Positions 58,226 through 62,126 of a stretch of 64,000 nucleotides of DNA are shown in pieces. The notes under the pieces were generated by a model. That model saw only the letters and a list, made by a program, of their open reading frames with translations. It searched no databases and was not told where the DNA came from. The stretch covers positions 1,792,001-1,856,000 of the forward strand of contig OY969474.1 of the NCBI GenBank assembly GCA_963700145.1, read 5' to 3'. The stretch's first letter is position 1. Every line of letters begins with the position of its first letter. Source of the DNA: an uncultured Acidobacteriota bacterium. Its GTDB lineage: Bacteria > Acidobacteriota > Thermoanaerobaculia > Multivoradales > UBA5704. The position numbers were made by a program, and so were the translations under genes.

Positions 58226-59250
58226 CCGATTCCGGCGGCGACGGCCGCTACGTCGATCCAGAGCTCGGCCTCCTCCTCGGCGAAGGCGCGGCGCAGCGGA
58301 TCGCGGCGGGCGAGGCGCGCGAGATCTGGCGCGACGTCGCCGCCAGCCTCCCCGCTCCCGGCGAAGGGCCCACCTACTACGACCGCCCGGTCCTCAAGGA
58401 GCCGGTCTGGATCTGGTCGGTGCCGGTCTACTTCTGGGCCGGTGGCACGATGGGAGCGGCGCTCGCCCTCGGCGGCGCGGCGCAGCTCGCCGGCGGCGAG
58501 GAGCTGCGCCCCTTCGTCCGCCGCTGCCGCTGGGTCGGCGCCGTCGGCGGCGCGGCGAGCGCCGCCCTCCTGATCCACGACCTCGGCCGCCCCGAGCGCT
58601 TCCACCACATGCTGCGGGTCTTCCGCCCGACCTCGCCGATGAGCGTCGGCTCCTGGGTCCTCGCCGCGGCGTCGACCCTGGCCGGCGGCGCCGCCCTCCT
58701 CGGCCGCCGCCGCGGCCTGCTGCGCGGCGCCGGCGACCTCGCCGGCCTCGGCGCCGCCCTCCTCGGCCTGCCGCTCGCCGGCTACACGGCGGTCCTCGTC
58801 GGCAACACCGCGGTGCCGGTCTGGCTGGCGGCGCGGCGAAGCCTGCCGTTCCTCTTCATCGCCTCCTCGATGTCGGGGGCGGCATCGTTTTTCGACCTAG
58901 GCTCCCTCAGACCGCGCGAGGCGAGGATGGTGCGCGCCTTCGGGATCGCCGGCAAGGCCGCCGAGCTGGCGGCGATGGCGGCGGTCGAGAGCGAGGCGGG
59001 ACGCGTCGAGCGGGTCGGGCGGCCGCTCCGCGAGGGGGTCTCCGGCGCCCTCTGGACCGCCGCCAAAGTGCTCACGGCCGCCAGCTTGGCGGCGACCCTC
59101 CTCCCCCGCCGCTCGCGCCGCGCGGGCCTCGCCGCCGGCCTCCTCGGCACTGCCGGCGCCCTCGCCCTCCGCTTCGCGGTCTTCCACGCCGGCAAGGCCT
59201 CCAGCCGCGATCCCCGGGCGACTTTCCTCCAGCAACGCGGCGGCGCCTGA
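58222..59250 (+). CDS. NrfD/PsrC-family membrane anchor
   Basis: YY..PVLKEPVW, DLGRPERF, SPMSVGSW, YTAVL, multiple TMs. Confidence 0.9.
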   Translation: MTDSGGDGRYVDPELGLLLGEGAAQRIAAGEAREIWRDVAASLPAPGEGPTYYDRPVLKEPVWIWSVPVYFWAGGTMGAALALGGAAQLAGGEELRPFVRRCRWVGAVGGAASAALLIHDLGRPERFHHMLRVFRPTSPMSVGSWVLAAASTLAGGAALLGRRRGLLRGAGDLAGLGAALLGLPLAGYTAVLVGNTAVPVWLAARRSLPFLFIASSMSGAASFFDLGSLRPREARMVRAFGIAGKAAELAAMAAVESEAGRVERVGRPLREGVSGALWTAAKVLTAASLAATLLPRRSRRAGLAAGLLGTAGALALRFAVFHAGKASSRDPRATFLQQRGGA

Positions 59251-59416
59251 ATCTCTTTGGTGCCGACTTGCGAAACTTCTCCTGCCTGGGCGATACTCGG
59301 TTGTCCCGATCCGCTCACTGCAGGACACCATCAGGTGCAGAGCCGTCAAGCTAAGCTATAGACGGCCATCTATTTACGGCCGGCACGCCGGCCATCGGAC
59401 GGAGAGGGGAGAAAAC

Positions 59417-59680
59417 ATGAAGCGTTCGCTTATCCGATCCTTGACAGCCCTGGCCGTGACGACTTTGCTTATGCTCGCACTCGCTCCAGCAGCAAACGCC
59501 GCCCCCTGGGGGCTGGCGGTCGAAAGCGGCTTTCGCGGCGCCGGCTGGTTCGAGAGCGCGCGCGAGTGGCTCCAGAGGCTCTTCGGGATGCAGTCGCCCG
59601 CTCCGAAGGCCAAGCAGAAGGCAGTGCAGCCGACCGGCTGCGGCATCGATGGGAATGGGAACCCGACTCCCTGCAGATAG
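59417..59680 (+). CDS. Small secreted peptide precursor with C-terminal GCGIDGNG..C motif
   Basis: GGAGA RBS; signal peptide ending ANA-A; C-terminus GCGIDGNGNPTPCR. Confidence 0.75.
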   Translation: MKRSLIRSLTALAVTTLLMLALAPAANAAPWGLAVESGFRGAGWFESAREWLQRLFGMQSPAPKAKQKAVQPTGCGIDGNGNPTPCR

Positions 59681-59703
59681 CTCTCCCTCGGAGGTTGAGT
59701 GCG

Positions 59704-61068
59704 ATGAAGGATCACCCGACCCCACGTGACCTCGAGGACTTCCTCGAGGGTTCGGCTCCCCCCGAAGTGAACCGGGGGGTGGTGCGCCACCTCCTCGCCG
59801 CCTGCACGGCGTGCCGCGGAGCCCTCCAGAGCATGGGATGGCGACCCGAGCGCCTCGAGCGCATCGTCTCCCTGGGCACGAGCAATCCGGAGGAGCTTCC
59901 GGAGTGGACGGTCGGGACCGAGAACCACGACTACGATCGCGCCTTCAGGAGGGCCTGGGAGGCGTGCGTGCAGGAGCTCCATTCGCCGACACCGCAGCGG
60001 CCCTCGCCTGCAGTCGACAGCGCCGACGAGGACCTACAGGTCGAGGAGCTTCTCGTGGGCGCCGAGGATCGTGTCCCCGAGTCCCGTCTGGTCGAGCTGC
60101 TCCTGGCACGCAGCCACGCCGCGCGCTATCGCGATGTCAGGGCGATGCTGCGCTGGGCGCGGTTGGCGCGGATCCTCGCGGAGCGTTGTGACGCAGCCGC
60201 CGCGGGAGGCGAGATCGCCCTCTTCGATTTGAAGGCGCGCGCTTGGGGACAGTGCGGGAATGCGTTGCGCGTGGCAGGCCGTCTGCGTGAAGCGGCAGCG
60301 GCGCTCGATCGATCCGGGACCTATGCTGCCCGGGGAAGTGGGGATGTCGCATTCAAAGCCCAGCTTCTGAGCTGGACCGCGAGCTTGCGGATCTTCGAGC
60401 GGCGATTCGACGACGCGATCACGCTGCTCGACGAAGCCGCTCGCATCGCCCGCAACCTCGGGATGCGAAGCGAGCTGGCGTGGTATCTGTCGAACCGGGC
60501 GCTCGCCACCGTCTACTCGGGCGACCCGGAGACGGCGATCCACATCCTGGACGAAGCGATGCCGCTGATCGATCCTGCGGAGCCCCACCTTCTCGTGGCC
60601 ATCTATCACAACCTGATCTACTGCTACGTCGAGGCCGGGCGGTTGCAAGAGGCCTTGGCGTTGATGCCGCGGACCCGCAGCGTCGGCGAGGAGATCGAGG
60701 ACGAGCTGCTGGGGCTCCGTCTCCTCTGGCAGGAAGCGCGGATCCTCTGCGAGCTCGGGCTCCTCGAGGAGGCCGAAGCCCAGTTCTCGCGCGCCCGCGA
60801 CGGGTTCCTCGAGCGCGACCTCTCGTACGAAGCGGCCGTCGTCTCCCTCGACCTCACGGCCGTCTACGTCAAGCTCGGCCTGCACACCGAGGTGCGCCGC
60901 ACGATCGGCGACATTCTGCCCATCTTCAGCAGCCTCCGCGTCGGCCGCGAGCTCCTCGCCTCGCTCATCCAGCTCCAGCAGGCCGAGGACCAGACCCAGG
61001 CCCTCCAGCTCATCCGCGCCCTCTCCCGCGAGCTCGTCGCCGGGCCCAAGCTGCCGCCGTCGGTTTGA
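59704..61068 (+). CDS. TPR-like helical-repeat protein with N-terminal zf-HC2-like motif
   Basis: GGAGG RBS; H...RHLLAACTACR; repeated TPR-like helices (GNALRVAGRL.EA). Confidence 0.8.
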   Translation: MKDHPTPRDLEDFLEGSAPPEVNRGVVRHLLAACTACRGALQSMGWRPERLERIVSLGTSNPEELPEWTVGTENHDYDRAFRRAWEACVQELHSPTPQRPSPAVDSADEDLQVEELLVGAEDRVPESRLVELLLARSHAARYRDVRAMLRWARLARILAERCDAAAAGGEIALFDLKARAWGQCGNALRVAGRLREAAAALDRSGTYAARGSGDVAFKAQLLSWTASLRIFERRFDDAITLLDEAARIARNLGMRSELAWYLSNRALATVYSGDPETAIHILDEAMPLIDPAEPHLLVAIYHNLIYCYVEAGRLQEALALMPRTRSVGEEIEDELLGLRLLWQEARILCELGLLEEAEAQFSRARDGFLERDLSYEAAVVSLDLTAVYVKLGLHTEVRRTIGDILPIFSSLRVGRELLASLIQLQQAEDQTQALQLIRALSRELVAGPKLPPSV

Positions 61069-61094
61069 CCGCGGCCGTCCGCCCGGCCCGGCCT

Positions 61095-62126
61095 CTAGGT
61101 CCCCAGCTTCTCCCAGTCGCTGTCCGGGGCGTCCTGGGCGATGGCCAGGCCGCCGTCTGAGCCGACGAAGACCGGGTCCTTGACCACCCGCACCTTGCCG
61201 CCGCCGACCTCGGCGAGCGCGCGCTCGAGGCGCGGCCCGAGGCCGCGGACGAGGCCGGTGCCGCCCGAGAGGACGACGTTGTTGCGCACCCGTTCCTGGT
61301 ACTCGGGCTCGACGCGCGACAGCAGATCGAGCATCGACTCGACGAGCGGCGGCAGGACGCCCTCGCAGGCCTGGCGCATCTCGGCGGTGATGTCGATCTG
61401 CGTCGGCTTGCCCTCCACCGGCACCGTCACCACGACCGGGGCCTTGGTGTCGCCGACGAAGCTCGCCTCCTCCTTCCAGGCGCGCACCATGTGGATCGAG
61501 AAGCGCGCCTGCGGCTGCCGCTCGCGCAACAGGCGGAAGAGCTGCTCATCGATCCAGTCGCCGGCCACGGTCAGCGTGCGCTGGTCGTCCTCGGTCGGCA
61601 GGCGGCCGTTCATGACGCAGAGGTCGGTGGTGCCGGCGCCGATGTCGATGATCATCGAGTGCAGCAGCGCCTCCATGCCGTAGGCCACGGCGAACGGCTC
61701 GGAGACGATGAGCAGGTTGTCCACCGCCCCCTGCAGCGCCTTGCGCACGTGCTGCTTGTTGACCCGCAGCGCCTCGGCCGGCACGCCGACGACGGCGCGC
61801 ACCTTGGCGCCGTTGCGCGCCGCCGGGTCGACGCCGGCCAAGCCCAGGAGGTGGCGCAGGAGCTCGCGCACCGCCGCTTCGTCTTTCTCCGAGCCGTCCT
61901 TGATCAGCCCCGCTTCCAGCGGCCGGTGGAGGTCGAGCATGGTGCGGTTGTCGAGCGCCTCGCGGCCGATCAGCACCGGGCGCTTGAGCACCTTGCGGGC
62001 CACCATGTCGAGCGGCCAGCCGACGTAGCTGTCCACCACGTGGCGCTGGCCGTTGGAAGCGGAGATCGAGCTCCTCGAGGTGCCGAGGTCGATCCCCACG
62101 AGCACGACGTCGGGGCGGTCGGTCAT
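61095..62126 (-). CDS. MamK-like actin-family ATPase
   Basis: GIDLGTS, VGVPA, VSEPFAVAYG, IIDIGAGTTD.C, G.LP..DDQ.TL..AG..IDE.L, PEYQ, VKDP.F.G, W..LG; closer to recalled MamK than to MreB. Confidence 0.85.
   Translation of the reverse strand: MTDRPDVVLVGIDLGTSRSSISASNGQRHVVDSYVGWPLDMVARKVLKRPVLIGREALDNRTMLDLHRPLEAGLIKDGSEKDEAAVRELLRHLLGLAGVDPAARNGAKVRAVVGVPAEALRVNKQHVRKALQGAVDNLLIVSEPFAVAYGMEALLHSMIIDIGAGTTDLCVMNGRLPTEDDQRTLTVAGDWIDEQLFRLLRERQPQARFSIHMVRAWKEEASFVGDTKAPVVVTVPVEGKPTQIDITAEMRQACEGVLPPLVESMLDLLSRVEPEYQERVRNNVVLSGGTGLVRGLGPRLERALAEVGGGKVRVVKDPVFVGSDGGLAIAQDAPDSDWEKLGT

Follow-up and report, generated by a model that had tools for sequence, protein, structure and literature searches.

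Can an exported peptide encoded beside a cytoplasmic tetratricopeptide repeat (TPR) protein serve as the signal of that protein in a diderm bacterium, in the manner of the RRNPP systems? The question is raised by two adjacent genes at positions 59417 to 61068 of a 64,000-nucleotide stretch of DNA (the window) from an uncultured Acidobacteriota bacterium of the lineage Thermoanaerobaculia. The first gene encodes an 87-residue peptide precursor (P0001), and the second a 454-residue protein (P0002) that combines an anti-sigma-type zinc motif with TPR repeats. An earlier reading of the bare sequence (the original prediction) had proposed here a candidate peptide-signalling pair or one resembling ribosomally synthesized and post-translationally modified peptides (RiPPs). 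Our analysis identifies the locus as one copy of a real, conserved and uncatalogued cassette that joins RRNPP-like logic to the anti-sigma control of extracytoplasmic function (ECF) sigma factors and that occurs at this site in pherotype-like alleles; its function is a prediction made from sequence. Coordinates given as plain ranges are those of the window, and the features that they delimit lie on its forward (+) strand.

A recurrent cassette of a peptide gene and a TPR gene

The pairing of the two genes recurs throughout the host genome (G000), which is represented by one 5.46-Mb contig of 71.5% G+C. It contains 14 full-length paralogs of P0002 at 31-39% identity, plus four fragments, and 13 of the 14 are preceded by a peptide gene (the peptide-less paralog lies at 3645700). 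In a blind scan of the whole genome, 46 out of 59535 open frames were found to end in [ILMV]D[PG]xG. In nine of them the start resembles a signal peptide, and each of the nine is situated just upstream of a TPR paralog, in the same orientation. When 71315 frames were searched with a profile built from 12 peptides, 13 full-length matches were obtained, all of them upstream of TPR paralogs; the next match (E 1.7e-3) covered the signal peptide only. The association between the peptide and TPR genes is far beyond chance.

A P0002-type protein is present in 27 of 31 related genomes (the host genome included) and in 18 out of 18 genomes of the host's own taxonomic family (f1), with 8-43 copies per genome in the latter. 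Among 29 loci of relatives, a peptide of the P0001 build was recognized in 23 (16 by profile, five by motif and two by signal peptide and helix), the assignment of the peptide to the central TPR gene not having been checked in every one of them. No peptide was found in L043, L045, L046, L050 and L055; L044 begins at a contig end, so that the presence of a peptide cannot be judged, and the peptide of L047 belongs to a neighbouring cassette. The homologs originate from Thermoanaerobaculia metagenome-assembled genomes, and their database names are limited to "tetratricopeptide repeat protein" or "hypothetical protein". A scan of metagenomes with P0002 yielded two loci only, one of which (L079) carries the same allele as the locus L032 described below. 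Overall, the existence of a large, uncatalogued family of Thermoanaerobaculia cassettes composed of an exported-peptide gene and an anti-sigma/TPR gene is well supported. The adjacency that the original prediction expected to recur does so, in 13 of the 14 paralogs and 23 of the 29 loci; the TPR homologs keep their peptides, so that a refutation by peptide-less homologs fails, and the C-terminal motif, set beforehand as a further refutation test, is conserved among paralogous and orthologous peptides.

The precursor gene (59417..59680, from the list of open reading frames (ORFs) and its translation) is preceded by a purine-rich, Shine-Dalgarno-like GGAGAGGGGAG (59401..59411, read from the sequence), and its product has the proposed architecture of signal peptide, W-rich amphipathic middle, basic linker and two-Cys core, every element of which is borne out by the sequence. 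Residues 1-28 (59417..59500) constitute a Sec-type signal peptide, MKRSLIR being followed by a hydrophobic core (Kyte-Doolittle maximum of 1.95 at residue 5 in a 19-residue window) and then by ANA↓AP, where the A-x-A rule places the predicted cleavage site (ANA↓A). The W-rich stretch of the leader, RGAGWFESAREWLQRLFG (residues 40-57, 59534..59587), is a predicted amphipathic helix with a hydrophobic moment of 0.43. It is succeeded by a basic KAKQK linker and the core GCGIDGNGNPTPCR with its two Cys; the variable C-terminal core corresponds to PTGCGIDGNGNPTPCR (residues 72-87, 59630..59677), in which the two Cys flank a D-x-x-G turn. The W..A..WL pattern of the leader helix is retained across 34 members of the peptide family, and only D78 and G81 are invariant in their alignment.

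No family model covers this peptide, as P0001 gave noise only against Pfam and NCBIfam. Searching with a profile of the 34 peptides yields, at E<=1e-3, the representatives of 1178 clusters made at 50% identity (164 at E<=1e-10). Of the 150 best, 146 are new, and these were examined for start, turn and Cys: 143 have a signal-peptide start, D[PGAST]xG is present in 144, and a flanking Cys pair is found in 138. The ring seen most often has nine residues between the cysteines (75 cases) and the consensus TGSCIDPxGxPxPC, where the x of DPxG is highly variable. Some precursors (L047:3645-3959 (+), P0182) carry three tandem AGIQIDGNG copies where others have one core, an arrangement that resembles multi-copy precursors of pheromones or RiPPs. 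A codon comparison between P0001 and its ortholog in L032 (56 codons identical, 18 with synonymous changes only and 11 with non-synonymous changes) indicates that the peptide ORF is under purifying selection, and this codon pattern supports its translation only indirectly. One run of a soil metatranscriptome contained three short contigs of relatives over 59359-59574 (19 differences), 59699-59941 (6 differences) and 60750-60795; this is an RNA library in which DNA carry-over is possible, so that the contigs do not establish transcription, and neither a transcript start nor the uncovered parts are interpretable.

The P0002 gene (59704..61068) starts 23 nt after the peptide gene (gap 59681-59703) and has a GGAGG ribosome-binding site (59690..59694, read from the sequence). 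An alternative 500-residue frame with a GTG start opens at 59566, overlapping the peptide ORF; the ATG at 59704 was taken as the start because GGAGG is 9 nt upstream of it and because homologs of 450-455 residues align over 100% of the 454 residues. With a hydropathy maximum of 1.28, the protein has no hydrophobic segment and is predicted to be cytoplasmic. The partner therefore corresponds in full to what had been described, a 454-residue protein 23 nt downstream that has no signal peptide and carries HxxxxCxxC and TPR repeats.

The N-terminal domain of P0002 (residues 1-55, 59704..59868) comprises four helices and the predicted ligands H4, H29, C34 and C37, the last three forming the motif H29-x4-C34-x2-C37. 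Across 46 homologs, H29, C34 and C37 never vary, and at least 90% have H4. A profile of 15 such domains searched against the PDB gave as its four best matches DdvA (E 4.5e-4), ChrR (2.3e-3 and 2.5e-3) and full-length DdvA (6.9e-3), followed by RslA (0.29); ChrR and DdvA align to the profile (HMMER) with a one-residue gap at the H-x4-C spacing. Residues 1-114 were modelled with AlphaFold (predicted local distance difference test, pLDDT, of 76.9), and this model was compared with 48161 chains using VIA, which placed MucA-cyto at the top (Z 4.8) and RsiW (3.5) and RslA (3.4) within the top 15, all of them at low Z. Foldseek found nothing at E<=0.001 for the model of this domain in the PDB. Judging from the profile matches and the conserved ligands, the N-terminus of P0002 is a zinc anti-sigma domain, and the corresponding interpretation of HxxxxCxxC in the original prediction is substantiated by the DdvA and ChrR matches (E 4.5e-4 to 6.9e-3).

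The remainder of the protein is dominated by a TPR solenoid of about eight helix pairs (residues 113-446, 60040..61041), detected both in the AlphaFold model and by Pfam TPR_12 (E 3.4e-14). The model of the full-length protein (pLDDT 86.1, predicted template modelling score 0.70) shows the four N-terminal helices and the solenoid, with a linker between them (residues 94-112) that is disordered in part. VIA matched the solenoid to APPBP2 with its RxxGP degron (Z 26.8), LGN (25.0), RapJ-PhrC (24.1), phi3T Rap with its pheromone (23.7), RapF-PhrF (23.6), NprR (22.7) and PlcR-PapR (19.0), and Foldseek agrees in showing peptide-binding TPRs as the nearest structures. The suggested likeness to RRNPP receptors is thus upheld at the level of structure (Z 19-24 to the Rap, NprR and PlcR complexes). 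A full-length profile of the P0002 family matches RapF at E ~1e-8, yet generic TPR proteins rank above RapF. Neither Pfam nor NCBIfam names an RRNPP-specific family for P0002, and Pfam finds no helix-turn-helix (HTH) family in it; some distant homologs have an XRE HTH (HTH_3) fused to the TPR part. The modelled solenoid would be of the peptide-binding kind of TPR, which is no proof of RRNPP membership.

Discrete alleles at the window locus

A syntenic locus between the genes for a formate-dehydrogenase-type subunit and a MamK-like protein is present in four genomes of the same genus. In G004 (L030) the flanking genes are 97.9 and 98.8% identical at the amino acid level and the receptor 95.6%, uniformly along its length. 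In G003 (L031) the flanking values are 85.6 and 95.0% and that of the receptor 70.9% (53% over the N-terminal 110 residues and 77% over the rest), and in G002 (L033), with one flanking gene covered, they are 78.6% and 58.6%. A mosaic is found in G001 (L032), where the flanking genes are 96.9 and 96.6% identical and the receptor is 61% identical overall, with 46.8% over residues 1-300 and 89.5% over residues 301-454. At the nucleotide level, the identity to L032 is 90-98% up to ~59628 within the peptide gene, then drops to 45-63% and returns to 80-100% from ~60600-60780. The comparison delimits a hypervariable block (59630..60603, no strand assigned) comprising the peptide core, the spacer and receptor residues 1-300. 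Upstream of it, residues 1-53 of the L032 peptide are identical in amino acid sequence (although two codons within residues 1-28, and 11 within 29-72, differ synonymously), and the core is exchanged from CGIDGNGNPTPCR to ...GDTGCVVDPTGAPCTK. Gene conversion from a paralog was considered as the source of the L032 allele and rejected: P0002 remains its best match in the host genome at 47%, and the next paralog is at <=32%.

The same partition is seen in a wider sample. Among 16 peptides sharing this leader (public proteins included), leader identity averages 84% (minimum 68%) and core identity 41% (minimum 12.5%), and the cores carried by this one leader belong to at least six types. For eight peptide/receptor pairs, all kin (five taken from genomes and three by inferred pairing), core identity correlates with the identity of receptor residues 1-300 (Spearman 0.61) and not with that of the leader (0.15), and leader identity correlates with receptor residues 301 to the end (0.56); between core types, receptor residues 1-300 level off at a plateau of 46-56% identity. 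The peptide-receptor covariation that the original prediction proposed to test is present, the core and receptor residues 1-300 varying together as one allelic block. By analogy with known pherotypes, these would be discrete strain-specific peptide/receptor alleles.

An unusual form of the peptide was noticed in a metagenome contig: in P0179 (90 residues) the leader is fused after residue 56 to the C-terminal residues of the upstream formate-dehydrogenase-type subunit, which reflects either a deletion or an error of assembly.

Sigma factors, the proposed circuit and its alternatives

In two cassettes of the host genome, the peptide gene and the receptor gene are separated by a gene for an ECF sigma factor (Sigma70_r2 and r4); a third cassette has one divergently beside its peptide gene, and the fourth sigma paralog of this genome, at 4071146, stands alone among housekeeping genes. 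Among the loci of other genera and families, L049, L052 and L054 show the same intermediate position of the sigma gene, and in L047, L050 and L051 it immediately precedes the gene for the receptor. Sigma and receptor are both present in 26 of the 31 genomes and both missing in three; one occurs alone in two (G024 and G029, both with the weakest matches). Family f1 has 3-7 sigmas per genome versus 8-43 receptors. Hence the three-gene order peptide-sigma-receptor is probably ancestral, and the two-gene form of the window would be derived by loss of the sigma gene. Every copy without a sigma gene retains the zinc ligands, so that its probable target is a sigma encoded at another locus.

A promoter-like motif was derived by k-mer enrichment in 34 upstream regions of peptide genes (TGTCCC, TGTCAC, TTTACG) and subsequent alignment, which gave TGTC(C/A)CG, 16-17 unrelated bases and CAC(T/C), mostly ending 86-117 nt before the start codon. 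In the window it takes the form TGTCCCG-N17-CACC (59302..59329) and ends 87 nt before the peptide ATG. The strict form, TGTC[AC]CG-N16/17-CAC[TC], is present in 17 of the 34 upstream regions, and a relaxed form in seven more. It appears to mark the clade of the window and some three-gene cassettes, not the whole family. Because of its two blocks at a fixed spacing we take it as a candidate ECF-type promoter, and it is probably read by an ECF sigma. A search of 59150-61250 found neither a sigma-70-like promoter nor an intrinsic terminator, and the motif was not found upstream of the two sigma genes located outside cassettes. For three paralogs, a sigma-54 reading of an upstream TGGCAC-N..-GC was tried and discarded (the GG-GC spacing is 12, not 10). 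Away from the cassettes, the strict motif occurs on the host contig at G000:C1 122988 (-), 721517 (+), 1195996 (-), 1427049 (+) and 3415420 (-), in the form TGTCCCGC...GCACT; these five sites may be due to chance or may be further targets of the same sigma.

The proposed circuit builds on what was observed, namely the gene pairing, the domain identities, the association of the family with sigma factors, the promoter motif and the allelic block. Precursor processing, uptake, peptide-receptor binding and sigma release are what we infer from them. The Sec system would export the precursor, and its signal peptide and leader would be removed. The C-terminal core, with its D-P/G-x-G turn usually closed by two Cys, would thereby be set free outside the cell as a product containing CGIDGNGNPTPC. 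This core would re-enter the cell and bind in the groove of the cognate TPR domain, and its binding would alter the hold of the N-terminal anti-sigma domain on an ECF sigma. The freed sigma would then read the TGTC(C/A)CG-N16/17-CAC(T/C) promoters before the cassettes, closing a feedback loop. For the sigma-less cassette of the window, the target would be one of the four sigma paralogs located at other sites of the genome, and the core and receptor residues 1-300 would form the specificity pair, in discrete strain-specific alleles like those of pherotypes. The conserved Cys pair suggests a disulfide formed outside the cytoplasm, which fits a released signal. We put the central claim, that the exported peptide is the ligand controlling the TPR anti-sigma receptor, slightly below an even chance. 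A wider version of it, a peptide quorum sensing native to diderms in which disulfide-closed pherotype peptides and dozens of TPR anti-sigma receptors form channels converging on 3-7 ECF sigmas, appears doubtful. By analogy with RsrA, the imported disulfide might even be passed to the zinc-bound Cys of the receptor and release the sigma by thiol-disulfide exchange, a variant that we regard as very improbable.

A number of observations weigh against a peptide ligand and the circuit built on it. No result shows a contact between peptide and receptor, and a complex prediction for receptor residues 75-454 with the mature peptide (residues 29-87) scored 0.24 and 0.02 (mark 0.32), a run made without controls that gives no verdict either way. 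The disulfide would be reduced in the cytoplasm, which is awkward for a cytoplasmic receptor, and no importer, protease or exporter gene travels along with any of the 13 cassettes. The covariation of core and receptor could stem from their physical linkage in one imported DNA segment, as the two parts are contiguous. Moreover, the other comparable cassettes of G001 are continuous in nucleotide identity and show no mosaic (c797 92.7%, c1858 91.1% and the covered part of c799 91.9%). The cassette of the window has no adjacent sigma gene. Its anti-sigma domain lies inside the hypervariable block (residues 1-50 are 40-48% identical to the L032 allele), and such variability would be odd in a domain holding a conserved sigma encoded elsewhere. 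Pfam zf-HC2 matches only two of the 15 N-terminal domains, at E 0.24 or worse. The TPR similarity is not specific to RRNPP, since APPBP2 and LGN score as high or higher. The strict motif is barely enriched genome-wide (23 occurrences versus 14-18 in Markov simulations), and it precedes only two (strict form) or three (loose form) of the 13 cassettes of the host.

A different arrangement would be a partner switch coupled to secretion, where the TPR domain would bind the precursor before export in a chaperone-like manner and the balance of bound and free receptor would set the anti-sigma hold, making uptake unneeded. A cytoplasmic receptor shares its compartment with the newly made precursor, whose cysteines would be in reduced form at that stage; the cassettes are not linked to any importer; and the top structural match, APPBP2 (Z 26.8), reads a C-terminal degron. 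The correlations of the leader with the C-terminal third of the receptor (0.56) and of the core with its first 300 residues (0.61) would fit a precursor lying along the whole groove. A precedent exists in type III secretion, where TPR class II chaperones also act as co-activators (IpgC-MxiE). On the other hand, discrete strain-level alleles on a conserved leader typify traits acting between cells rather than internal housekeeping, the Cys pair (138 of 146) and the repeated cores point to a released extracellular product, and Sec substrates mostly leave fast; we therefore consider such a switch unlikely. We think no better of the chances that the two genes encode a regulator and a regulated product, the peptide being a secreted effector (bacteriocin-like or used in kin discrimination) and the anti-sigma/TPR protein answering another cue without binding it. 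The W-rich amphipathic helix (moment 0.43), with a disulfide-closed turn after it, would suit such an effector, hypervariable alleles between close strains also typify antagonism loci, target genes are common within ECF operons, and the gene immediately downstream of the shared promoter motif is that of the peptide. However, the cassettes contain no immunity-like small membrane protein, 8-43 cassettes per genome would amount to very many toxins lacking immunity genes, and the variation of the core and receptor residues 1-300 as one block is hard to explain without contact.

The RiPP-like part of the original prediction found no support. Were the peptide a RiPP precursor, and the TPR protein the element that recognizes it or serves as a scaffold for a modifying enzyme encoded at another site, the conserved leader with its hypervariable core and the multi-core precursors would be accounted for. 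Yet no modifying enzyme is conserved beside any of the 13 cassettes (a Pfam analysis of 96 ORFs around 12 paralog loci revealed none common to them), a Sec signal peptide precedes the leader, and the partner bears an anti-sigma domain, so that this possibility appears very unlikely. Returning to the reading of the peptide as the ligand of its TPR partner, it would, if true, provide a directly testable account of how cells signal to one another and how strains are told apart in a dominant and poorly understood soil phylum, as well as a new mode of gating anti-sigma factors, for which the core/receptor allele pairs are ready-made specificity swaps. Should the peptide be an effector or a chaperoned cargo, the cassette would still represent a large uncatalogued regulatory module, with 1178 peptide clusters that have no Pfam or NCBIfam model.

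Relation to known systems and genomic surroundings

The cassette shares with RRNPP systems (Rap-Phr, NprR-NprX, PlcR-PapR, Rgg-SHP, AimR-AimP) an adjacent exported propeptide with its business end at the C-terminus, a cytoplasmic TPR receptor of similar size and superhelical shape (Z 19-24 to the Rap, NprR and PlcR complexes), and the presence of many paralogous cassettes per genome with allelic specificity classes. The cassette departs from RRNPP in having as its output a zinc anti-sigma domain and not an N-terminal HTH or a Rap-type three-helix (phosphatase-type) bundle; it belongs to a diderm Acidobacterium, places the peptide gene ahead of that for the receptor, and usually has a Cys pair in the core. 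No sequence family shared with RRNPP was recognized other than generic TPR, and peptide uptake and binding, which define the RRNPP systems, are here predicted. By this comparison, the cassette of the window would be RRNPP-like in its working without being an RRNPP member. In the part of an RRNPP survey accessible to us, peptide signals with cytoplasmic TPR receptors are framed as a speciality of Firmicutes (PMC10075063). Our literature searches (RRNPP with Acidobacteria, anti-sigma with RRNPP, Thermoanaerobaculia with TPR, and Acidobacteriota quorum sensing) found no description of a peptide paired with a TPR anti-sigma protein. What the locus adds is a two-gene, RRNPP-type logic in soil Acidobacteriota, with ECF wiring, 8-43 cassettes per genome and discrete alleles on a 97%-identical background.

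With the zinc class I anti-sigma factors (ChrR, RsiW, RslA, RsrA, DdvA), P0002 has in common an N-terminal helical domain with His/His/Cys/Cys ligands (H4, H29, C34 and C37, as compared with H6, H31, C35 and C38 of ChrR), the profile similarity and, in the ancestral form of the cassette, an ECF sigma gene directly upstream. Unlike them, it has H-x4-C instead of H-x3-C, and its sensor is a cytoplasmic TPR solenoid with no membrane segment; most copies, including that of the window, have no adjacent sigma gene, and a small exported-peptide gene leads the operon. The accessible portion of the ECF reclassification mentions TPR only as an extension of ECF42 and in a FecR-like partner of ECF267, and it contains no anti-sigma type of this kind (PMC7826278).

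The alleles at the window locus invite comparison with the pherotypes of comQXP in Bacillus subtilis, where, according to the part of the source available, near-identical housekeeping genes accompany signalling genes that differ by 30-35% between groups (PMC4408185). In either case, to the extent that this source allows the comparison, a near-identical background surrounds a divergent block that covers the specificity part of the signal and the sensing part of the receptor, in discrete alleles. The two cases differ in the proteins and the phylum concerned and in that the block described here includes no modifying enzyme; the alleles of the cassette were compared by sequence alone. The divergent comQXP block reportedly extends into the N-terminal part of comP, and the polymorphism of PlcR-PapR is said to be a further pherotype case. 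As for APPBP2, a CRL2 substrate receptor for the RxxGP C-degron (PDB 8jal/8jaq), it provides the best TPR matches to P0002 (Z 26.8 over 335 aligned residues, and 26.1) and is a TPR protein that reads a short Gly/Pro-containing C-terminal motif. It is, however, a eukaryotic ubiquitin-ligase adaptor at 12-13% identity, the likeness being confined to fold and type of ligand.

In the window, the cassette is flanked by a gene for a formate-dehydrogenase-type membrane subunit and by a convergent gene for a MamK-like actin. The spacer between the TPR gene and the latter (61069-61094) is a hot spot of insertions, with ~250 nt extra in L030, 560 nt in L031 and 1.1 kb in L032. The host genome encodes three Opp/Dpp-type binding proteins (SBP_bac_5), none of them linked to the cassette. 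A second cassette lies ~0.7-2.3 kb past the window end (G000:C1:1856718-1858294 (-), L023:4004-5577); its peptide ends in ...GLAGDPNG, and a loose promoter motif is present. A gene for an Opp/Dpp-type lipoprotein (G000:C1:1860979-1862022 (+), L023:7998-9569) is found ~2.7 kb from this second cassette, too loose a spacing for linkage.

Other copies in the host genome display further variations of the arrangement. Four cassettes (L017:5361-8406, L019:5532-9087, L021:224-4001 and L024:5918-8435) are located inside a larger repeated module together with a small XRE-type HTH protein (encoded convergently or divergently), a 260-274-residue protein that itself contains an H..xxxC..C-like motif, and a number of conserved ORFs outside any Pfam family, and this module may supply a second set of partners for the TPR proteins. 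In L025, the peptide paralog (G000:C1:4274662-4274883 (+)) has no stop of its own and runs in frame into the start of the TPR gene, so that this cassette is probably decaying. A distant 455-residue paralog with an H..C..C motif and TPR_12 (L026:2075-3439 (-)) stands back to back with the cassette at 336552; as it was not listed by the P0002 search, the family in the host genome exceeds 14 members. Finally, the cassette at 2753416-2755182, the one with the divergent sigma gene, is adjoined by a phage-type integrase (L028:513-1799 (+)) and a Mutator-family transposase (L028:2570-3859 (+)), neighbours which hint that some cassettes move with mobile DNA.

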